A DNA stretch of 32,000 bases from Ornithinibacter aureus (GCF_009858245.1 NZ_VMSB01000001.1:2453623-2485622); one strand, 5' to 3'; numbered from the stretch's first letter, positions 3,142 to 12,940 are shown. Translations and numbers: made by a program. The notes: generated by a model from the sequence alone, not told the origin.

Positions 3142-4687
3142 CTAAGGGTCGTCGAGTCCGCGGGTGGTGTGCCACCGGTACAGCCGGCGGATGTTCATGC
3201 CGAGTAGGGCAAAGGCGGTCAAGAGACCGGTGGCAGCGCGTCCGCGGCAGCGGATGTAGCCGCGGTTGAGGTTGACGTCCTGGTAGCGGGCGAGGCCGTT
3301 GAGGCCTTCGATTCGACTTCGCCGGTTCCAAACCTTGGCCCAGGCGGTGCTCTGCCACGGCAGTGCTTGGCGGTCGCGCTCATGAGTGGTGGCGGGAACA
3401 GTTACTGTGGCGCCACACCCACAGGGCGTTCCCTTTGGCACGCCGTCAGGGCTCGACGGGCTGGGTCGCCGCGCATGCTTTTGGGGATGTTGCGGCAGCG
3501 GACGCGTCCCGCGAGGGCCGGCCCTTTGAACCGTTGGGCGCCGGTCACCGGATCGGGTGCGTTGTGGGCGACGAATTCGTACTTGTGGCGGCGGTCGAAC
3601 TCGTCGCGAAGTCGATCCTTGACGGTGGCGGAGTCGCCGGGCCGCGGTGGTCGGAGTTCGCGAAGGTCAGTGGGGATCGCGGCGCTGTAGAGGCAGCCGT
3701 CGAGCCAGATCGTCCCGGGGACGGGGCCGGGGCGGACACCGCGTTGGGTCTCGTGGAGGTTCTTGGTGTTGCTGATGCCCAGGCTGCGCAGCGGTCGGGC
3801 CCAGCGTTCGGGCTTGGCGGTGGTGTAAGCGCGGTCGGCGAGGACCTCTGTGAGGTTGCCGAGGCGACGGATGATGGCCATGGCCGCGGCGTTGCGGTCC
3901 CGGACGCCGGGGCGTACCGCCAGGCCGGTGGCTAGCAGGGGCAGCTCTTGGTCCGCGCCCGACGGCAGCATGGTTGCGATGTGCGCCTCGTTGCCGACGT
4001 AGAACTCGGTGCGGCGCCGATCGGTCGGAGTCCGCTTGCCCAACGAGGCCTCGGTGTCGATGCAGTCCCACTTTTGGTCTGCTGGGGTCGCGGGTCCGGG
4101 CTGCCTTCTCCGGTAGTGCGACTCGATGTCGGTGCCGTCGATGGCGATAGCGGTCGGCAGTTTCGCCCTGTAGCCGTCCGGCAGGCTCGCCAGCAGAATG
4201 TCGGTGAGGATCTCGTCAAGGTCTGCGTCTATGTGGCTGCAGCTGGGCCGCACTCGATGACCTCGCCGGTCGCGGGGTCGGCTTCTGGATGGTCGTGTGG
4301 GAGGTGCACGCCGACGGAGGAGCGGCTGATAAGGGCTGACACGCCGCTGCGGATGCGCTTGTCGGTGACTGCCACCCCAGCGGGGATGCCGATGGTGAGT
4401 CGCTCGCTCGGCGACAAGTCGGCGGCGGTGCGGACGATCTGGGAGACGATCATCGAGGCGCCGGTGCGGATCGCGTGCAATGCGAGCAGGATCGCGATCG
4501 AGCGGAGCGGGATCATGCGGGGACGGCCGAGTCGTGGTGTGGCGTGATCGAGCAGGGTGCGCATCGTGGTGTTGTCGGCGCAGCCGACGGCACGGGCGAT
4601 TTGCTGTGCCCGGGTCAGCTCATTGGCGATCAGCACCCGGCTCGGCGCCGGGCCCGACCGCGTGCGGTTCTTGGTTCGCCGGCTCAT
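3142..4687 (-). pseudogene. DDE transposase (IS4-like YREK-type C-terminal motif), split over three reading frames
   Basis: ORFs 4229-4687, 3402-4253 and 3142-3441 overlap head-to-tail in different frames. Candidate catalytic residues are AIDGTD, VLADRAYT and WNRRSRIEGLNGLAR (W-x2-R-x3-E-x6-R). No slippery heptamer was seen at either junction. Confidence 0.65.
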
Positions 4688-5667
4688 CGCCTCGTCATCT
4701 GGGCGAACACGTCAGCCTCGGGGATGTCAGGCAGGTAGGGCATCAGGTGCCCGATGGTCTTCGTGGTGCTGAGGCCGGCGACCTTGGAGAGTTCGTTGAG
4801 GGGCACGTGGTTGCGCATGTGGTGCAGGAGCCAGGTGGCTCGTAAACGGTGCAGCTTGATCACGGGTGTGCCCGGTGGAAACTCGTCCTTGCCGAGAAGG
4901 TTGCTCAGCCGGGAGCGGTCCCATGCGGGCGCGACGTAGCCGAGCAACGTCGAGCCGGGATCCTCAGATTGGATCGTTCTGAGAGTGTCGTCGTAGGGCG
5001 GGAGGATCGGCACGACGCGAGCCCGGTCACCGAGAACGTTGAGGCAGAGCAGGCCGTGCTTGTCGAGAAGGTCGTCGGTGGTGACCGTCCACGACTCCTT
5101 GGGGAAGAGTCCGGCGCCGAGGCCCAACGCGAGGAGGGATTGCAGATGCCGTCGCTGCACCCGGGTCCGTTGTGATGCGGCGACCTCGAGCAGTCTGGCG
5201 ACTTCCTGGTCGGTGTAAGGAACGACGGCGTAGTTCAAGCCTCAATGGCTTGACGGCGGGCGGCCATGGCGCCCTGGTCGTGAGTTCACGTCCGTACTGG
5301 CGCAGGTAGGAGCGTCGGGTCGCCCGGGATGACTGAGCGAGGTGATGGCACCCCCCGGCGATGTAGCCCTCGACTGTATCGGGGTCGAAGATCAGCTCCA
5401 CATCAAGAGGGAGTCCCTGCGTCCGCGACCAGTGGATGACTGCGAGATGGTGCGCATCGACTCGATCGCTCGTTTGGGATTGGCGGGGTTCAGCTGCAAC
5501 GCGAGGACGACGGTGAACTCGGCGATCGGCTCCCACTGATCCGCTCGCAGCAGGTGGGGCACGTAGCGCCGAACGGCCCGCTCGGCGGCGGACGGGGACA
5601 CGTTGGTCGTATCGTGCTTGACTCGGGTGGTTCTGGAATCGGAAGATGGCCTGACGAAGCCCTCCAC
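4684..5667 (-). pseudogene. Tyrosine-recombinase-like (integrase family) gene, split over three reading frames
   Basis: Frames 5392-5667, 5027-5536 (middle portion) and 4684-5238 read through as one ~328-aa protein. The C-terminal piece has LHRLRATW (H-x-x-R box) and GHLMPYL (H...Y). The box I Arg position looks degenerate (GLFPKES). Its stop overlaps the transposase start (ATGA at 4684-4687). Confidence 0.55.
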
Positions 5668-5777: not shown

Positions 5778-6167
5778 TCAAATGGCCTCCTCTCGCTCGG
5801 CGAGAGCGGCAGCCAGGAGGTCGGAGGCGATAGCGCTCACGGGGCGACCGTTCGCCGCGGCCAAGGCGAATACCTGGGCGGCGACCACGGCCGGCGTACG
5901 CACTTCAACGCGCACCAGCGCGTTCGGCGGCAGCCGACGAGGTGTTGAGGGTGGCCGGCCCGAGCGAGCAGGGGGAATCTGCACCCTGCTGTCGTCTTCC
6001 GTGCCCATCTGCCTCACCTCGTCCGAATCGATCACATCTGCCAAGTCGCTTCGGGGCGTTGGTAAGACGCTGATCTCATCGGGGTTCGGCTGGGAGGCCG
6101 ACTGATAGGGCAAGGCTACCCCGTAGCAGTCGGGCCTTCTGGAACTCGCTGCACGTCGGCGCGCCAC
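5778..6167 (-). CDS. Hypothetical protein with a possible ribbon-helix-helix-like C-terminus
   Basis: The C-terminal VRVEVRTPAVVAAQVFALAAANGRPVSAIASDLLAAALAEREE resembles a beta-strand plus two helices. An alternative ATG at 6008 is possible. Coding evidence is weak. Confidence 0.3.
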   Translation of the reverse strand: MARRRAASSRRPDCYGVALPYQSASQPNPDEISVLPTPRSDLADVIDSDEVRQMGTEDDSRVQIPPARSGRPPSTPRRLPPNALVRVEVRTPAVVAAQVFALAAANGRPVSAIASDLLAAALAEREEAI

Positions 6168-6644: not shown

Positions 6645-8117
6645 GTGACGCGGCGCAGCAAAGCGAAGCGGTGGCTTGGAAGGCCGGATGACCCCTCGCC
6701 CCTATCGCCGACAGACAGTGCAGCCCGCCGCATTACAGTGCCGCTCGTCCCCCCGGTCGCGGACCTAGACGAGCCGGATGAGACCACTGAAGTAGGTCAA
6801 CACTGGGTCACACAATCGGCGAAATGGAGCGTTCGACGGAGCCCCGAGTTTGGTCCGCTGGTGGTTCCGACAGGCAACTCTGATGGGCCGGTGCATCGTT
6901 GGTTCCACTTAAAAGAAGCCTTCAGTCGAGATTTGCTTCCCCAGCTGCTCCAGCTCTTGCCCGAGGCAAAGTCGCCTGACGGTGGATTAACCATTGTCGA
7001 CCCGTTCTCGGGTGTCGGGACCACGATGCTTTCGTCGGTGGAGTTGCTCCGCGACGGCCACCTGAGCTCGTTGCGGGGTTACGGGCTTGAGGTCAATCCC
7101 TTCTTGCAGTTCGTCAGCTCAGTCAAAGTGAGGTCAGCGCTCTCGGACACCGAGGCCGACGTCAACACGTTGCTGTCGCTGGTCAAGGTGGCGGGCGGAT
7201 TGGCGGTTTCAACCTCGGATTTTCCTAGCCTGTCGACTTTCCGAAATGAGCGGTACTTTCCCCCAACGCATCTTGAACAGCTGGTCAAGCTTCGTCGCGC
7301 CATCGACGTCATGGGTCTAGACGAAACGAACCGTGACTGGGCGAGGTTGGCACTCGCGATGACCGTCGAGCCCGCCAGCCGTCTTCGCCGCGACGGCCGA
7401 GCATTGCGATATGAAGCTCGCGAGCCGCTCGCGCCTATGCAAGTCTTCGAGCGTGCGGTCGGGCGCATCTCGCATGACGTTTCAACTTTCGGTGCGGTCA
7501 CCGGAGGCGATGTCGAAATCGTTCAAGGCTCGGCGGCGACCCCGGAGTGGCAGCTCGTCGGTCCAAGCTCTGCTGACCTCGTCGTGTTCAGCCCGCCGTA
7601 CCCGAACAACATCGACTACACAGAGGTCTACAAGACCGAGCTGTGGGCGTTGTCCTTCGTGACCGATGCCGACGAATTCAGAGAACAAAGGCAAGCGACG
7701 CTGCGGAGCCATCCAAGTGTCAAGTTCCGGCGTGAGGTGGCGTACTTGGAGGGTGACCGAGCGGCGGAAGTCGCAAGCGTTCTCGGTCCGGTAGTCAAGG
7801 CCATCCCAGCAACGTCTCGCTACGCAAAGCCGCTGGAGCGGATGATATGCGGCTACGCCGACGACATGCTTACGACTTTCGACGCCGCCTTCAAGAGTCT
7901 CCGGAAGGGGGGCTATTGCGTGTACGTCGTGGGCAACAGCGTGCACGGCACCGCTGAGGACCCGGTCATGATCGCATCTGACGTCATGCTGGGTCGGCTA
8001 GCGGAGTTGGCTGGGTTTGAGGTCGAAGTCGTGCTAGTTGCCCGTGATCTGCCGCGAAGGAGGACGGCCAGCAGGTTCGTTCGTGAGAGTGTCGTTGTGC
8101 TGCGCAAGCCGTTCTAG
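6645..8117 (+). CDS. DNA methyltransferase (N6-adenine or N4-cytosine class, SPPY catalytic motif)
   Basis: AdoMet motif I IVDPFSGVGTT (D119-T127, nt 6999-7025). LEVNPF motif. Catalytic motif IV FSPPYPNN (S316-Y319, nt 7590-7601). Downstream LRKGGYCVYVVGN. GTG start with no clear SD, so the start is uncertain. Confidence 0.85.
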   Translation: MTRRSKAKRWLGRPDDPSPLSPTDSAARRITVPLVPPVADLDEPDETTEVGQHWVTQSAKWSVRRSPEFGPLVVPTGNSDGPVHRWFHLKEAFSRDLLPQLLQLLPEAKSPDGGLTIVDPFSGVGTTMLSSVELLRDGHLSSLRGYGLEVNPFLQFVSSVKVRSALSDTEADVNTLLSLVKVAGGLAVSTSDFPSLSTFRNERYFPPTHLEQLVKLRRAIDVMGLDETNRDWARLALAMTVEPASRLRRDGRALRYEAREPLAPMQVFERAVGRISHDVSTFGAVTGGDVEIVQGSAATPEWQLVGPSSADLVVFSPPYPNNIDYTEVYKTELWALSFVTDADEFREQRQATLRSHPSVKFRREVAYLEGDRAAEVASVLGPVVKAIPATSRYAKPLERMICGYADDMLTTFDAAFKSLRKGGYCVYVVGNSVHGTAEDPVMIASDVMLGRLAELAGFEVEVVLVARDLPRRRTASRFVRESVVVLRKPF

Positions 8118-9169
8118 GCGCATGACGGCGCGAGAAAGCAACGGAACGGCTGGCCCATATCGGCGCGTCCGAGAATGTTGGTCGGGTACTCCGGGTCTCT
8201 CAATGCGTAGTAAAGCCCGTCTTCGGCTGTGATGCTCGCCTGTGTGGCTGACAGGTTCCGACGCCGCGCGTCGAAGACGAACAGGTAACCCATCACAGGA
8301 ACGTCAGAGCTGGTCGAATCCCGTAGGTCCAGGTACTCGGCGAGCTGTTTCAGGCCGGAGACGGCGCGCGCTTGGGTGTAGGACGTGCTGAACGCTGAAG
8401 CGTTCAGCGGACCTGAGTCGCCCAGCCACTTGATCTCGATAAGTGCAGAACGCTTGACACCCCACCATGTGACCTCGATGTCGACCGGCCTTGATTCACT
8501 TTGGTTGAGTTCCGGGCGGACAGTGGCGTCGCCGCCCAGCGCGTAGTTGAGCGCCTGGAGCAACGACCGGCGCATCAGCTTCTCGGGCTTTTCGACGAGC
8601 CCCAACCGCGATCCATCGCGCCACATGGTCTGAAGATGTCCACACTGCTCAGGCACTCGGTTCTGGCGGACATAGTGGGCGAGTGCCTCCTCCAGAGTCG
8701 CGAAGGTCGGCGTGGCCATCCCACAAGCCCAAGGACTGTCGTTCACTGGCCAAGGTGTGCCGTCAACCACGATCTCTTCCACTTGACCGTGTACGTAGCG
8801 ATAGGTGAGGTATGGGCCGTCGCACACCACGTCCAATGCGTCGTCGTCCCATGCCTTATGCGTGGTCGTCCCCACGATGACGACAGTGAGCTTGCTCATT
8901 GCCTTCCCGCCGAACTCGTCGAGTCGATGAAGGACCGAGCCGCCGTCAGCGTCGATCATGAGCTCGGGATCTATGGGCGCGAGCACGCGCAGCCCGTCAG
9001 TAAACATCTCGAACGGGACGTGCTTCAGCAACTCGCGCGTGGAGGCTAATAGGCGAATCAGCGCGTCAACGCCCGCTACGCCGAAACGTTGATGAACCGC
9101 CACCTCGTACTGGTTCTCATGCAACCTGGCGAAGGCTGCCACGAGCTCATCAGCGCCCTCCTCCGTCAC
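8114..9169 (-). CDS. PD-(D/E)xK nuclease-fold protein with an uncharacterised ~190-aa N-terminal domain; candidate effector
   Basis: The motif is PVD230-IEV...ALIE245-I-K247-W (nt 8429-8482), preceded by a helix (EKPEKLMRRSLLQAL) and followed by the strand GYLFVFD. The GTG start overlaps the upstream stop (GTGA at 9166-9169), with SD-like GAGGCGGA 6 nt upstream. Confidence 0.75.
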   Translation of the reverse strand: MTEEGADELVAAFARLHENQYEVAVHQRFGVAGVDALIRLLASTRELLKHVPFEMFTDGLRVLAPIDPELMIDADGGSVLHRLDEFGGKAMSKLTVVIVGTTTHKAWDDDALDVVCDGPYLTYRYVHGQVEEIVVDGTPWPVNDSPWACGMATPTFATLEEALAHYVRQNRVPEQCGHLQTMWRDGSRLGLVEKPEKLMRRSLLQALNYALGGDATVRPELNQSESRPVDIEVTWWGVKRSALIEIKWLGDSGPLNASAFSTSYTQARAVSGLKQLAEYLDLRDSTSSDVPVMGYLFVFDARRRNLSATQASITAEDGLYYALRDPEYPTNILGRADMGQPFRCFLAPSCA

Positions 9170-9963
9170 TGTTCGTCCGCCTCGTCAAGCGCCCGAGACA
9201 CGCCGTCCTGAGCCCTCTGCTGGAGGTATCTGACGTACAGAGAGGCAGGAACGATCAGTTCCTCGTGCTCGGAGCCTAGAACCTGCACGAGTGCGGAGAA
9301 CTCGCGATACAGAGGCTCGCTGGATACTTGAGTGAGAAGCAGGCGTGGATTGTCCAACCGGAGTGCCTGTGCAAGTTGAGGCTCGTAGGCGAGCGAGTTC
9401 ACGACGGCCGGAGGAGAAGTGAAAAGCGCCGTCTTGCCGGCGGCGCGAAGGAAGTCGACACGTGGCGCGAATGCTTCCAGTCCCGACAGGAACGCGAGGT
9501 CGCCCCTCCCTTGTGCAGTCAACCTGTAGCAGTTGGTGCCTTCATCAGCGTCCTCGGATCGGGTGCGGAGCAAGCGAGCCGACGCCACGAGATCTGAAAG
9601 GGCGGCCTCGATGGCGGGGCTGAACGGAAGCGTCGGAGGCACAGCACTGAACGCGTAGCCCCACTCGGAGGCAGGCTCGCCTTTGTAGACGGACATAAGG
9701 CACCCCAGGTACGCAAACGTCTGAAGTTCGAGCCGGCTAGGCGAGCCCTGGGGTTCCAGAACAGCCACAAGATAGAGAACATCGAAGGTGGCTGCCGGTT
9801 GCCAGTCTTGCAGGGCTTCCCACGCGGTGTCCTCTAAGCCGTCGTCTACGAAGTCAGAGCCGCTCTCCTCATTGAACGTCTCCGCATCGTCGAGCTCTAG
9901 ATCTCCGAGCGTCAATTCATCAGTCATTGAGCGCCGCCAAGGGTTCGGAACCGCCGTTGTCAA
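9166..9963 (-). CDS. Acidic hypothetical protein; candidate 'middle component'/kleisin-like adaptor of the ATPase-nuclease operon
   Basis: It lies between the ATPase and the nuclease and overlaps both. The N-tail (DELTLGDLELDDAETFNEESGSDFVDDGLED) and C-tail (LDEADEQ) are acidic. The TTG start at 9963 has GAGGAGG 3 nt upstream. An alternative ATG at 9927 overlaps the ATPase stop by 8 nt (AATGACTGA). Confidence 0.7.
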   Translation of the reverse strand: MTTAVPNPWRRSMTDELTLGDLELDDAETFNEESGSDFVDDGLEDTAWEALQDWQPAATFDVLYLVAVLEPQGSPSRLELQTFAYLGCLMSVYKGEPASEWGYAFSAVPPTLPFSPAIEAALSDLVASARLLRTRSEDADEGTNCYRLTAQGRGDLAFLSGLEAFAPRVDFLRAAGKTALFTSPPAVVNSLAYEPQLAQALRLDNPRLLLTQVSSEPLYREFSALVQVLGSEHEELIVPASLYVRYLQQRAQDGVSRALDEADEQ

Positions 9964-11932
9964 GCGCCTCCTCGATGGCCCCGTAGGCCTTCTCGAAGAG
10001 ATGTTCTTCTTCGACCTGGACGTCAGTTAACGTGGTCCACTCGGTCATCCGAACGAATTGCATCTTGGCTCGACCGGATCGTTCGGCCATGCGCGTGAGC
10101 AATTGGGAGGTGTTGACATTGGCAGTCATTATGACTTGGTCCCCGTCGGCAGTGAATGAAGCAAACATGTCGCCTGCCTTCGCCTCGTAGGCGATGTCGA
10201 GTGCTCCCTCGGGAGTGTCGATCAGAAGGCACGCGGGGCCACTTCCGCTGGTCATGTGCTGGGCGAGGCTCATGCGAAGCGCGATGTCGAGGAAGAAGCG
10301 CTGACTTTCTGAGAGTTGCTCAGACCGTCGTCGATGGGTGCCGCTCACCGAAAGAGCAAGGTGAGCCATCCCTGAGATCCCAGAGCCTGCGTCAAGTGTG
10401 ACCTGCAAGGGCAGGCCCATGAACTCCTCCGCGAGGCGACGGAACCGCGGAACGAACTCCACCTCCGCCTCGTTCCACGCGGACTTCAACTGTGCCTGAA
10501 TTGGCTCATAGGATGCGAGCGCCTCGGCTCGAAGTCGCAGGTGTTCTTCCTTCCGTCCGAGCAAGACGTCAATCGAGCCCTCCAGTTGCGAGATCCGATC
10601 GCGCAGGAGCCCTTCATCGGCGTCGGCGGGCTCTTCCTCCGATGGCAGTTCGTGATGCGCCTGCATCTCGGAGACTTCGTTGATGATCGAAGCCAGTTCC
10701 CGTTGCTTCTCTCGGACCTCTCCGTCGAGCCGCTCGATCGTCTTCGCGAGGCCCGTCGATCGGCGCGAGACGGCTGCAAGTTCCTGATCGAGAGCAACAA
10801 GGCGCTCCTGCGCCTCCTCGGCGTCCGAAGGGTCGTGGACCAAGTCAGCTGTGCAAAGGGGGCACTTGTTGAGCGCGACTGCTGCTTTGATCGCGACCGG
10901 ACCCGTCGAGTGCTGGGTGCCGCAGATACGGCACTGGTGGTCCGAGAGACTTTGTCCGATGATCGCGTGGAGCTGAGGGCCAGCACTGGTGCGGCCAAGA
11001 CGCCGCATGAAAGCTTCGTCGTACTCAAGGCGTTTCCGCATCCGCGTTGCGCTTGCCTCAGCGAACTCCAGTCGGGAATCGGCCAGTTCGGTGCGCAGCG
11101 CATTGCGCTCGACCGTGATCCGCTCACGATCGGATTGCAAGTTGCGGTAGCGATCCATGACGCTCTCATCGACCCCGGACTTCCGGCGCAACTGACCGGT
11201 CACGCGCTCTAGCTCGTTGCGCGCCAAGGTTGCTTGGTACTGAGCGTTGCGCGCCTGCGACCCAGCGGCGGCGGCGGCTTTTCGGAGCTCGTCGACTTGC
11301 TTCGCCAAACTGGGATCGAGTCCAAGCGCAAGGTACAGAACCAACTCGGTCGCACGGGTGTCCCAGAAGAGGAGGTGTCGGTGCTCGTCGAACGAGAACA
11401 CAAAGTGTTGGAGAAAGACGAACTGCGCGAACGTCTGCAGGCCGGTGTCCTGGACCAGTCGAACTTCGTACAGACGGTGTCGTTCCTCGGCGTCCATGTG
11501 AGGTTCGTGCGCCACGACCGTTCGGCCCTCGCCGTCAGACACGGAGAACTCCTCGAGCTCGTGAGCAGCGAAGAAGCGCCGTCGCACGTAGTACTCGAAT
11601 TCGCCGACCCTGAATCGGAGAGCAACGCTTGCGCTCGGCCGATCCAGTTCGGCGATCCTGCCAGTGAAGTACTTGGTTCCGTAGGCTGACGCATCGCGCT
11701 GGTATCGCGAGAGTTGCTCGACTCGCACGTTTGGCGGCGCCACCCCACCCGTGAGGCCGTAGTTCAGAGCGGCGATGAAGCTCGACTTGCCAAGGCCATT
11801 GGCCCCAGCCAGACAGAACACGTCCCGGTCGATGTCGATCGTCACCGTCGGCTTGACGCGGTACAGGCTGAACGCGTTGAGCGCCACCTCGCGCAGATGC
11901 GGCAACTTGGTCTGTCGCCGTTCGGCGCTCAC
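9920..11932 (-). CDS. Rad50/SMC-like ABC ATPase with coiled-coil insert and central Zn ribbon
   Basis: Walker A GANGLGKS (aa 43-50, nt 11783-11806). ABC signature LSESQ (aa 540-544, nt 10301-10315). Walker B CLLID + E575 (D572 at nt 10217-10219). About 300 aa of heptad-like, charged sequence lies in between. CRIC-x20-CPLC sits at aa 334-360 of 670 (nt 10853-10933). GTG start with GAGGAG SD 7 nt upstream. Confidence 0.9.
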   Translation of the reverse strand: MSAERRQTKLPHLREVALNAFSLYRVKPTVTIDIDRDVFCLAGANGLGKSSFIAALNYGLTGGVAPPNVRVEQLSRYQRDASAYGTKYFTGRIAELDRPSASVALRFRVGEFEYYVRRRFFAAHELEEFSVSDGEGRTVVAHEPHMDAEERHRLYEVRLVQDTGLQTFAQFVFLQHFVFSFDEHRHLLFWDTRATELVLYLALGLDPSLAKQVDELRKAAAAAGSQARNAQYQATLARNELERVTGQLRRKSGVDESVMDRYRNLQSDRERITVERNALRTELADSRLEFAEASATRMRKRLEYDEAFMRRLGRTSAGPQLHAIIGQSLSDHQCRICGTQHSTGPVAIKAAVALNKCPLCTADLVHDPSDAEEAQERLVALDQELAAVSRRSTGLAKTIERLDGEVREKQRELASIINEVSEMQAHHELPSEEEPADADEGLLRDRISQLEGSIDVLLGRKEEHLRLRAEALASYEPIQAQLKSAWNEAEVEFVPRFRRLAEEFMGLPLQVTLDAGSGISGMAHLALSVSGTHRRRSEQLSESQRFFLDIALRMSLAQHMTSGSGPACLLIDTPEGALDIAYEAKAGDMFASFTADGDQVIMTANVNTSQLLTRMAERSGRAKMQFVRMTEWTTLTDVQVEEEHLFEKAYGAIEEALDNGGSEPLAALND

Positions 11933-12024
11933 GAAATGTCTCCTCGGGTTTGCGGACTGTGCGGCCTAAGTCTGCACAGGTATTGCTACCAGACATCCGG
12001 CCATGCCGCTGATGAACGGACTCC

Positions 12025-12044
12025 AAAACGGCCGGGTGGCCGTT
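12025..12044 (-). terminator. Intrinsic-terminator-like hairpin after the DUF4238-like gene
   Basis: On the minus strand, AACGGCC-ACCC-GGCCGTT is followed by a U run (GTTTTGG), 18 nt after the stop at 12062. Confidence 0.4.
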
Positions 12045-12061
12045 CAAGTTCAACAGGTCGC

Positions 12062-12940
12062 CTACGGGGCTGGCCGTCGGAACATCTGCACGACACGAAC
12101 CTGCTCCTGAAGCGAGTTCAGCAGAGTTGCCCCGGCGGCCGTCAGCTCACGAACCTCGGCGACGTCGTGCATCGATACGAACAAGCGGGGTCCCAAGGGC
12201 ATACCCGCCGCGGTGGCGTCCCCCAAGGCAACGCCCTGCGAGGGGTTTAGCCCCTTCCTGCGGCCGGAAGGCGTCAGAACGGGGGCGTCGGACATAACCA
12301 GGTCCTCCACTCCGTCACCACAGAGCAGCACCTGAACATGACTGCGAGCGAGGTGGCTGCGTGCGAACCCGTAAAACTCCGGGACGCGGGCAGCGAAGTG
12401 GCGCCCGTCGAGCACCTCTTCGGGGCCCGTATGCAGTTCCGCATTGAGGGCGTCGAGTTCCGCAGGTGTGGCCGTGCGGCCTGTCCGCCTCTCGAACAGC
12501 CCCGCGAGAACGTGATCACCTCGACTCCGGAACTCGTCGCGATGCCTGGCCTGCACCCTCAGCCACGATTGGTGGGCCGCGGTCTTCACGGCCTTGCTGC
12601 GGGCCCAGTGCAGGGCGATGCAGTCACGCAAGGTCGACTCCTCGGGCGAACCCGGCTCCGGAGCCACACCTTGGAGCGCAACGGAGATGGCTTGGGGCAG
12701 GCGTGTCTCCACGGTTTGCCAAAGGGCCTCGACCTGCCCACTGTCATGTTCGACGAAGTCGCTGACATATCCGACCGCTGCAGGGGAGCGGAGACGCCAC
12801 CGTCCGGGTCTGCGGGAGTCCTCAACCTCTAGGTGTCGGTCGACTGCGAACTGTGCCAGAACGACGCGGGACACCACGTGCTGCTTGGTGACCGACGCAT
12901 TCACAGGGCTCATCCTCCTGGCTGCTTCCTGAGCCAACAC
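12062..12940 (-). CDS. DUF4238-like protein
   Basis: N-terminal KQHVVSRVVLAQF resembles the DUF4238 'HyvPqfyLrrF' start, and LVMSDAPVL resembles its 'SDnPv' motif. Both comparisons are from memory of the family. GTG start at 12940, or ATG at 12913. Confidence 0.65.
   Translation of the reverse strand: MLAQEAARRMSPVNASVTKQHVVSRVVLAQFAVDRHLEVEDSRRPGRWRLRSPAAVGYVSDFVEHDSGQVEALWQTVETRLPQAISVALQGVAPEPGSPEESTLRDCIALHWARSKAVKTAAHQSWLRVQARHRDEFRSRGDHVLAGLFERRTGRTATPAELDALNAELHTGPEEVLDGRHFAARVPEFYGFARSHLARSHVQVLLCGDGVEDLVMSDAPVLTPSGRRKGLNPSQGVALGDATAAGMPLGPRLFVSMHDVAEVRELTAAGATLLNSLQEQVRVVQMFRRPAP

Follow-up and report, generated by a model that had tools for sequence, protein, structure and literature searches.

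SMC-family machines such as Lamassu and Wadjet are innate immune sensors of DNA shape or DNA ends. Restriction-modification (RM), BREX, DISARM, MADS, and MANTIS systems read chemical marks. Here we analyzed a 32,000-nt stretch of the Ornithinibacter aureus genome (GCF_009858245.1, NZ_VMSB01000001.1:2453623-2485622; this whole stretch is called the window), with the focus on positions 6645-12940. This part carries a DNA methyltransferase gene, a triad of genes for a Rad50/SMC-like ABC ATPase, a small middle protein and a predicted PD-(D/E)xK nuclease (the effector), and a gene for a DUF4238 protein. We found that the methyltransferase and the triad are a conserved, co-inherited unit of four genes and that the catalytic motifs of its three enzymes are intact. 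The reading that we favor, with a probability of about 0.5, is that this mobile defense cassette performs methylation-gated restriction by an SMC-like complex.

The triad resembles Lamassu (LmuA/LmuB/LmuC; DdmABC; "ABC-3C") in its tight three-gene operon, its nuclease effector, its small middle protein with a predicted helix-turn-helix (HTH) fold, and its Rad50/SbcC-like ATPase (about 660 aa), which has a coiled coil and between zero and two CxxC motifs. In solved Lamassu complexes, LmuC is the DNA-contacting subunit, and both it and the effector are held by the coiled coils of LmuB. However, Lamassu genes are ordered LmuA-LmuC-LmuB, whereas the order here is reversed, ATPase-middle protein-effector, in all 80 loci described below. 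LmuA consists of an N-terminal effector domain and a C-terminal docking domain, while here the nuclease is C-terminal and the N-terminal domain is unrelated. When compared with LmuA, none of 25 effector homologues matched PADLOC models or the Pfam ABC-3C C-terminal domain families, and none of 47 middle proteins matched the ABC-3C middle-component families of Pfam or NCBIfam. Membership of Lamassu/ABC-3C by sequence was therefore rejected for the effector and not supported for the middle protein, whose predicted fold is nevertheless of the HTH type reported for short LmuC. The DNA methyltransferase is an obligate fourth gene here, and none has been described for Lamassu. The ATPase clearly has homology to a superfamily that includes LmuB, as judged from hidden Markov model (HMM) scores, all 28 family ATPases having matched both LmuB and mad3. 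A first-pass annotation of the window had likened the operon to ABC-3C and Lamassu; this likeness held for architecture and folds but not for membership, given the effector and middle-protein families and the gene order.

Like MADS, the cassette would be a methylation-linked multigene defense with an ABC-type ATPase, and weak mad2 and mad3 matches were obtained. MADS, however, comprises eight genes (mad1-mad8, including the DUF4276/Toprim protein Mad4), and membership was rejected because there are four genes here, of which the effector and the middle protein matched no mad model. With MANTIS/Gao_RL (BREX-related type 2), the cassette shares the four-gene logic of an ATPase, a small co-factor, a methyltransferase, and a nuclease. 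Methylation marks self in MANTIS, ATP hydrolysis gates both modification and restriction, and the methyltransferase supplies recognition for both. The MANTIS components (the DUF499 AAA+ protein MtsA, the DUF3870 protein MtsB, and the HKD-superfamily 2 (SF2) protein MtsD) are not homologous to the ABC ATPase, the winged HTH protein, or the predicted PD-(D/E)xK nuclease of the cassette, and no PADLOC or Pfam match to them was obtained, so that membership was rejected here as well. The CxC-clade ABC/PbeABCD systems have a zinc-hook ABC ATPase whose coiled coil is about 400 residues long. The window ATPase matched the PbeC and DndD models weakly, and some CxC-ABC neighborhoods carry circularly permuted cytosine-N4 methylases. 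Their other components are a DndE partner with two ribbon-helix-helix domains, a nuclease made of HKD and SF2 helicase parts, and a disordered small protein. Membership was rejected, as the cassette has a winged-helix partner, a PD-(D/E)xK nuclease and no conserved helicase, and its PbeC scores were lower than those for LmuB. Types I and III RM systems likewise combine a methyltransferase with an ATP-dependent multi-subunit PD-(D/E)xK nuclease, are mobile, and show toxin-like dependence on the methylase; their motor, however, is an SF2 helicase, whereas here it would be an SMC/Rad50-type ABC ATPase without an HsdS-like specificity subunit. The first-pass annotation had not recognized a named system in the five genes, and in PADLOC, Pfam, and NCBIfam no gene set mapped at full length to one. 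By analogy, the cassette looks like a hybrid of Lamassu/ABC-3C and RM.

Four co-inherited genes

With the effector alignment as the seed, 185,579 species genomes were scanned, which gave 117 loci, of which 80 were kept. They span about 13 phyla, with members in Actinomycetota, Acidobacteriota, Alpha-, Beta-, and Gammaproteobacteria, Bacteroidota, Planctomycetota, and Verrucomicrobiota, and further in Chloroflexota, Thermodesulfobacteriota, Myxococcota, Bacillota, Melainabacteria, WOR-3, and Binatia. Neighboring genes were detected by iterative HMM searches with the five window proteins. The middle protein was found in all 80 loci, the ATPase in 78, the methyltransferase in 77, and the DUF4238 protein in none, and the triad genes were contiguous and co-directional throughout, always in the order given above. 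In each of the 77 loci, the family methyltransferase was directly adjacent to the triad; it lay downstream on the same strand in 42 loci, upstream on the same strand in 14, upstream and divergent in 12, and downstream and convergent, as in the window, in three to four. In the general sense of a methyltransferase (PF01555, with invariant catalytic motifs) that is genetically coupled to a predicted nuclease, the cassette would thus qualify as an RM system.

Two of the three loci without a detected methyltransferase end at contig edges (L057 and L078). The sole well-flanked one, L013, carries a 261-aa PF01555 open reading frame (ORF) at 11708-12490, 1.1 kb downstream of the effector, which matched the N-terminal half of PF01555 and has motif IV first, so it is not permuted; this ORF may be a replacement methylase or a remnant. 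Apparent methylase fusions in L071 and L080 were artefacts, namely GC-rich read-through ORFs.

The evolutionary distances of the components were correlated as well. In Mantel comparisons, the methyltransferase followed the nuclease with r = 0.73 and the ATPase with r = 0.67 (p = 0.002), correlations within the triad were 0.86-0.89, and the position of the methyltransferase tracked the ATPase clades. No flanking family that could be a fifth conserved component occurred in more than 9 of the 80 loci, and neither a helicase nor an HKD gene was conserved. These co-occurrence counts and correlated distances indicate that the unit consists of four co-inherited genes and that DUF4238 is a mere neighbor. 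The five-gene system including DUF4238 that the first-pass annotation had suggested is therefore rejected. Its proposal that the methyltransferase belongs with the triad was borne out by the survey of homologues; it had reasoned that triad homologues rarely found beside this methyltransferase family would point to chance adjacency, and the opposite was observed.

The methyltransferase also occurs with other partners. When its alignment was used as the seed in a metagenome collection, at least 568 relatives were found and 80 loci were fetched, 13 of which carry triad genes; of 17 loci flanked by no less than 2.5 kb on each side, 6 had triad genes and 11 had none. In at least 36 of the non-triad loci, the methyltransferase is followed by three same-strand genes. 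The first encodes a protein of about 650-700 aa that starts with a MutL-like GHKL region and ends in a histidine-kinase core, the second a CheY-like receiver of about 190 aa, and the third a small protein of about 185 aa, for which a guess of PIN nuclease identity was not confirmed. Examples are L125:6758-11171 and the loci L087, L089, L094, L103, L116, L124, L128, and L140. The nearest methyltransferase neighbor shared the partner type in 87 of 92 and in 30 of 33 cases. The kinase-linked enzymes are about 42% identical to that of the window and closer to it than triad-linked ones of other phyla are, indicating that partner switching has occurred within the family. The dependence is thus one-way: the triad always occurs with a methylase, and the methylase often without the triad.

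This arrangement recalls Ambrosia (AbrR/A/B/C/D), a validated Pseudomonas defense composed of a methyltransferase, a histidine kinase/HSP90-like ATPase, a receiver protein, and a nuclease. The cassette shares with it the use of an RM-type methyltransferase as a module, and the kinase-linked loci of the window's methylase family have a similar gene order. However, the partner module of Ambrosia (two-component signaling plus HNH) is entirely unlike the triad, and the likeness is one of architecture.

Among 1.84 billion representatives, the effector family formed about 310 clusters (50% identity) when E was limited to 1e-30, and 665 when the limit was relaxed to 1e-3. No member occurred in 72,556 plasmids, in 50,697 phage records, or in 5,426 Escherichia coli genomes, and in IMG/VR the family was found on 3 of 2.9 million contigs, each with the full cassette. 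The genomic settings show that the cassette is mobile. In Ectopseudomonas toyotomiensis (L083:6026-11110), it lies in the transfer region of an integrative and conjugative element (ICE), between TraC_F_IV and DUF1525/TraU/TraG_N, so that the ICE carries it along as cargo; the source annotation of this locus has no call for the middle gene. The Bradyrhizobium cassette adjoins ArdC, those of Paracidovorax and Frigoribacterium are bare four-gene insertions between housekeeping genes, and five loci have tRNA genes, of different kinds, no farther than about 400 bp from the cassette.

Variant loci were also seen. In L022 and L065 the ATPase is split into two to three ORFs and in L041 the effector into two, with the methyltransferase intact in all three; this could reflect RM-style decay, in which the toxic half is lost first, or frameshift errors in metagenome-assembled genomes. 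Three loci (L091:513-5626, L163:972-6124, and L141:1-4759) form a diverged subtype, in which both the ATPase (about 200 bits) and the methyltransferase (310-364 bits) are related to those of the cassette. Two of them, L091 and L163, have a middle protein with weak similarity only and encode another effector, of about 400 aa; the effector sequence of L091, the only one examined, again carries a D...ELK motif (RLDLEIEE...LLELKVLR). This subtype points to swapping of the effector and adaptor within a wider system superfamily.

The component proteins

The methyltransferase matched PADLOC MTase_II (PDLC03224, 9e-40) and, more faintly, mad2 (4e-6), and all 29 family members compared matched PF01555. 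Across these 29 sequences, D119, F121, G123, G125, and T126 (DPFxGxGTT) and the SPPY motif are invariant. Protein Data Bank (PDB) profile matches to beta-class N6A/N4C methylases span the motif I region, and with motif I ahead of motif IV, the enzyme has a permuted order compared with the beta class. N4-cytosine methylases carry an invariant SPPY more typically than N6-adenine methylases do. From this motif, methylation of cytosine at N4 may be expected of the window enzyme, which we treat as a lead, not as a result.

The window ATPase gave weak Pfam matches to SMC_N and AAA_23, and in PADLOC it matched LmuB (PDLC03859, 4e-21, 74 bits), mad3 (4e-11), and PbeC (8e-8). Over the family, the best scores were 5e-26 for LmuB and 1e-16 for mad3 (28 of 28 members matched both), and most members also matched PbeC or DndD; the mad3 model has 374 positions and covers only the head halves of the ATPase. 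PDB profiles gave weak matches to SMC/Rad50 heads and a coiled-coil match to the DUF3732 protein 9hqu. From the SMC/Rad50 coiled-coil matches, we infer a coiled coil at residues 209-484. Across the 28 homologues (30-40% identity), there is hardly any or no variation in Walker A (GANGxGKS), LSESQ, and D-T-P-E; S541, E542, S543, Q544, D572, T573, P574, and E575 are unchanged throughout. Both CxxC motifs, CRIC(334) and CPLC(357) in the window, are present in 65 of 73 full-length family ATPases. The pair is missing only from a Bacteroidota-type clade (L035, L041, L043, L045, L046, L059, L062, and L079; residues ~330-360), in which the rest of the cassette is kept, and this loss parallels the reported variable number of zinc hooks in LmuB (0, 1, or 2).

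Two catalytic positions of the ATPase depart from the ABC pattern. The Walker B motif (window 10208-10219, residues 572-575) reads D-T-P-E instead of the usual hhhhDE, and where ABC ATPases usually have the H-loop histidine there is MTAN, in which T603 and N605 do not vary. These features may be relevant to the control of ATP hydrolysis. We conclude from the profile matches that the protein is a distant member of the Rad50/SbcC-LmuB-DndD group with a family identity of its own.

For the middle protein, the AlphaFold2 (AF2) model (predicted local distance difference test score, pLDDT, 87; predicted template modeling score, pTM, 0.82) comprises a winged helix and a helical C-terminal half. Its Foldseek matches were winged HTH regulators of the PadR/MarR type and, weakly, MukE/MukF. 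No Pfam, NCBIfam, or PADLOC family was found across 47 diverse members, the best profile matches being faint winged-helix models and a single LmuC match (E = 0.019, 1 of 47). The model thus predicts an HTH-type winged-helix fold, like that of short LmuC. The conserved core is about 200 aa, and the acidic N-terminal stretch of about 40 residues is confined to the clade of the window.

In the AF2 model of the effector (pLDDT 85), two long helices at the N terminus are followed by a beta-rich part and then by a C-terminal core of alpha-beta-beta-beta-alpha-beta topology. E220, D230, E245, and K247 do not vary among the 25 homologues compared, whose identity goes down to 29%, and these putative catalytic residues lie on beta2 and beta3 of the modeled core, which extends over residues ~190-351. 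The N-terminal domain is markedly more variable than this core. The Foldseek matches were all below threshold but consistently PD-(D/E)xK enzymes: Hjc, SfsA, R.SwaI, MunI, Cas4, RecU, the nuclease domain of DdmD, and viral resolvases; no Pfam or PADLOC family was found in the 25 members, nor any sequence relative in the PDB. The predicted PD-(D/E)xK nuclease identity follows from the motif together with the modeled topology.

In the ATPase, the effector, and the methyltransferase, the motif content is beyond chance because it is conserved over deep divergence. Most of the motifs had already been picked out in the first-pass annotation. Its D...ExK motif is the invariant D230, E245, and K247; its Walker A, LSESQ, and Walker B were recovered as well, its central Zn ribbon is represented by the CxxC pair, and its coiled coil rests on the SMC/Rad50 profile matches. 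Its description of the middle protein as acidic applies to the N-terminal tail in the window's clade and fails as a family trait.

A proposed methylation-gated restriction mechanism and its rivals

In the mechanism that we propose, the methyltransferase would write N4-methylcytosine or N6-methyladenine on a short motif of host DNA. The ATPase would dimerize through its coiled coil and CxxC apex. By analogy with Lamassu, the dimer may bind the winged-helix protein, which would serve as a DNA-contacting LmuC-like adaptor, and may hold the effector by way of the effector's own N-terminal domain. The complex of the three proteins would scan or capture DNA and would use ATP to license cleavage of DNA without the methyl mark. 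Overall, this would be an RM system with a Lamassu-type three-protein machine as its restriction half. The motif may be read by the methyltransferase, as in Type I/III, BREX, and MANTIS systems, by the variable N-terminal domain of the effector, or by the winged helix.

A toxic nuclease that cannot do without a protective methylase, while the methylase can do without the nuclease, would leave just such a one-way dependence of the triad, which fits RM logic. Together with the intact catalytic motifs, it leads us to favor methylation-gated restriction. We infer a defense function, the formation of a physical complex, and a protective rather than a targeting role of methylation. It is somewhat more doubtful, at a little below even odds, that the cassette represents an undescribed defense family, which would be the first SMC/Rad50-type immune complex with an epigenetic self/non-self choice and would have a portable self-marking methyltransferase that also serves a defense based on two-component signaling.

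Several points count against this interpretation. The putative target-recognition region of the methyltransferase is only moderately variable, and the structural matches of the nuclease domain are individually insignificant, the best E being about 0.03. The characterized Lamassu relatives sense DNA ends and replication intermediates and act by abortive infection, with no methylation. In Ambrosia, pre-methylation by its methyltransferase gave the phage no protection, and a protective role of methylation here is therefore not to be assumed. As for novelty, ABC ATPases acting alongside RM systems are reportedly mentioned in the abstract of a paper by Krishnan and colleagues. In the literature covered, which did not extend to Krishnan et al. 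2020 and the MADS paper, we found no description of an SMC-like ATPase with a winged HTH protein, a PD-(D/E)xK nuclease, and a methyltransferase; a prior description in either of these may exist.

The LmuB match of all 28 ATPases, which is the best PADLOC match of the window ATPase, the HTH-type fold predicted for the middle protein as in short LmuC, the three-protein layout with a small middle component, and a Walker B that, like the one reported for short Lamassu, is non-canonical are also what would be seen if the cassette worked by abortive infection. The ATPase and the middle protein would then detect aberrant DNA (ends or replication intermediates) and set the nuclease free, so that the infected cell is killed, and the methyltransferase would not define the target but would be a brake on autoimmunity, or a DNA-loading or reader subunit for activation. 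We regard this as unlikely, since described Lamassu systems contain no modification enzyme, the LmuA family and, but for one faint match, the LmuC family were unmatched, and if methylation played no part in targeting, one would hardly expect the methylase to be obligate, to co-evolve with the triad, and to keep its catalytic motifs invariant. A modification-directed system of the Type IV or Ambrosia kind, in which the methyltransferase marks DNA during infection and the nuclease complex cuts what is marked, or in which the methylase senses infection and works with swappable effector modules, would agree with the partner switching within the methylase family, with its more frequent pairing with a GHKL/histidine kinase, a receiver, and a small protein (36 loci), and with the failure of methylation to protect phage in the architecturally similar Ambrosia. 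It seems quite improbable to us, because in most loci the methylase is co-directional with the triad and overlaps it, which suggests co-expression and would be self-destructive if methylated DNA were the target. Moreover, the methylase lineages are largely partner-specific (87/92 and 30/33), and AbrA may belong to another methylase family.

A primary role other than antiviral defense, such as an addiction or stabilization module of islands or conjugative elements or an accessory of DNA repair or segregation, is suggested by the cassette inside an ICE transfer cluster, by the small insertions between housekeeping genes, and by Rad50/SbcC relatives that act in DNA repair. RM systems are both addictive and defensive, however, so that defense remains compatible with such a role, and the patchy distribution (117 of ~185,000 species genomes) and the low-GC island argue against housekeeping repair; together with the lack of any match in 72,556 plasmids, this makes a non-antiviral primary role very improbable in our view. 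A mere coincidence, with an orphan Type II methyltransferase lying by chance beside a three-gene system to which it is unrelated, might be suspected from the window itself, in which the methylase lies on the opposite strand, and from the occurrence of the methylase family without the triad. It is refuted, to a vanishingly small residual chance, by the adjacency in 77 of 80 loci across ~13 phyla and in four arrangements and by the correlated distance matrices, and even the exceptional locus L013 has a methylase nearby. Methylation-gated restriction by the four-gene cassette is the explanation that we prefer, at about even odds.

Genomic setting and implications

The features of the studied part are collected in Table 1. 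All five ORFs agree with the gene calls of the genome (490, 351, 253, 670, and 280 aa), and the effector has 100% identity to GCM10023153_20870. The tight packing that the first-pass annotation had described for the three minus-strand genes is real: GTGA at 9166-9169 contains both the stop of the middle protein and the start of the nuclease gene (4-nt overlap), and the middle gene overlaps the 3′ end of the ATPase gene (stop 9920-9922) by 8 nt when read from ATG 9927. The TTG start at 9963 preferred in that annotation would extend this overlap to 44 nt, and the annotated ATG is the most likely start. The strong Shine-Dalgarno sequence before the ATPase start was confirmed, and so was the convergence of the SPPY methyltransferase on the nuclease gene at zero spacing, their stop codons overlapping as CTAG at 8114-8117.

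Table 1. Features of the cassette and its neighbor (window coordinates)
Feature	Position	Strand	Remarks
DNA methyltransferase	6645..8117	+	490 aa; N6A/N4C-type, circularly permuted; converges on nuclease gene
Methyltransferase motif I DPFSGVGTT (S-adenosylmethionine-binding loop)	6999..7025	+	Invariant columns in homologue alignment
Methyltransferase motif IV SPPY (catalytic)	7590..7601	+	S316-P317-P318-Y319 invariant in 29 sequences
Effector (predicted PD-(D/E)xK nuclease)	8114..9169	-	351 aa; ORF and AF2 model
Putative nuclease catalytic core E220...D230...E245-x-K247 (PVDI...IEIKWLG)	8429..8512	-	Invariant alignment columns
Middle protein	9166..9927	-	253 aa from ATG 9927 (265 aa if TTG 9963)
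Rad50/SMC-like ABC ATPase	9920..11932	-	670 aa; predicted coiled-coil insert, double CxxC apex
LSESQ (540-544) and non-canonical Walker B D572-T-P-E575	10208..10315	-	Invariant residues
C334-x2-C337...C357-x2-C360, putative zinc hook/knuckle	10853..10933	-	CxxC pair at predicted coiled-coil apex
Walker A GANGLGKS (K49)	11783..11806	-	G43, A44, N45, G46, G48, K49 invariant
Shine-Dalgarno GAGGAG	11940..11945	-	Read from sequence; 7 nt upstream of ATPase GTG
DUF4238 protein	12062-12940	-	Pfam match; immediately upstream of cassette

A stretch of the window at roughly 2.8-13.4 kb has a G+C content of 61-66%, down from about 74%. The fall starts directly after a tRNA-Leu(CAG) gene at 2702-2787, and the low-GC stretch is flanked by the core genes Pirin and Dyp-type peroxidase. 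Low G+C, the tRNA-Leu boundary, and the core-gene flanks indicate that the cassette sits in a horizontally acquired island. No tRNA-Leu-derived direct (att-like) repeat was found in the window at the far end of the island. The left part of the island holds minus-strand ORFs at 3402-4253, 4229-4687, 4684-5238, 5392-5667, and 5778-6167, which gave no Pfam or PDB match and include no recognizable integrase; an integrase or transposase identity considered for those at 3402-5238 was dropped accordingly. Just outside the island, at about 16.0-16.7 kb of the window (L081:2430-3097), proteins with PIN and PSK_trans_fac (VapB-like) domains form a probable VapBC toxin-antitoxin pair.

The DUF4238 assignment of the gene upstream of the cassette was upheld by Pfam PF14022 (6e-9; a score of 36.1 bits, the cut-off being 27; positions 1-239 of the 281 in the profile covered). 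The protein had no PADLOC match, and the window copy is therefore regarded as divergent. A DUF4238 protein from a P2 prophage hotspot has been reported to confer strong T7 resistance, and by analogy the gene is probably a second, independent defense gene on the same island. The terminator of its own that the first-pass annotation had given it was not supported: the hairpin after the gene (an 8-bp GC stem followed by four T) fails the terminator scan and is no better than shuffled sequences (z = -1.0).

Since two of the four proteins belong to no Pfam, NCBIfam, or PADLOC family, current defense-finding tools miss the cassette. If our interpretation is true, SMC-based DNA sensing and RM can be combined in one defense, and the cassette, with its four proteins, would be a compact setting in which to study how DNA modification is probed by an SMC-like ATPase. 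The methyltransferase family, which also serves a histidine-kinase module, suggests a more general theme of the methylase as an exchangeable module. With its presence in at least 117 species of ~13 phyla, on islands and ICEs, the cassette may hinder gene transfer among soil and sediment bacteria.

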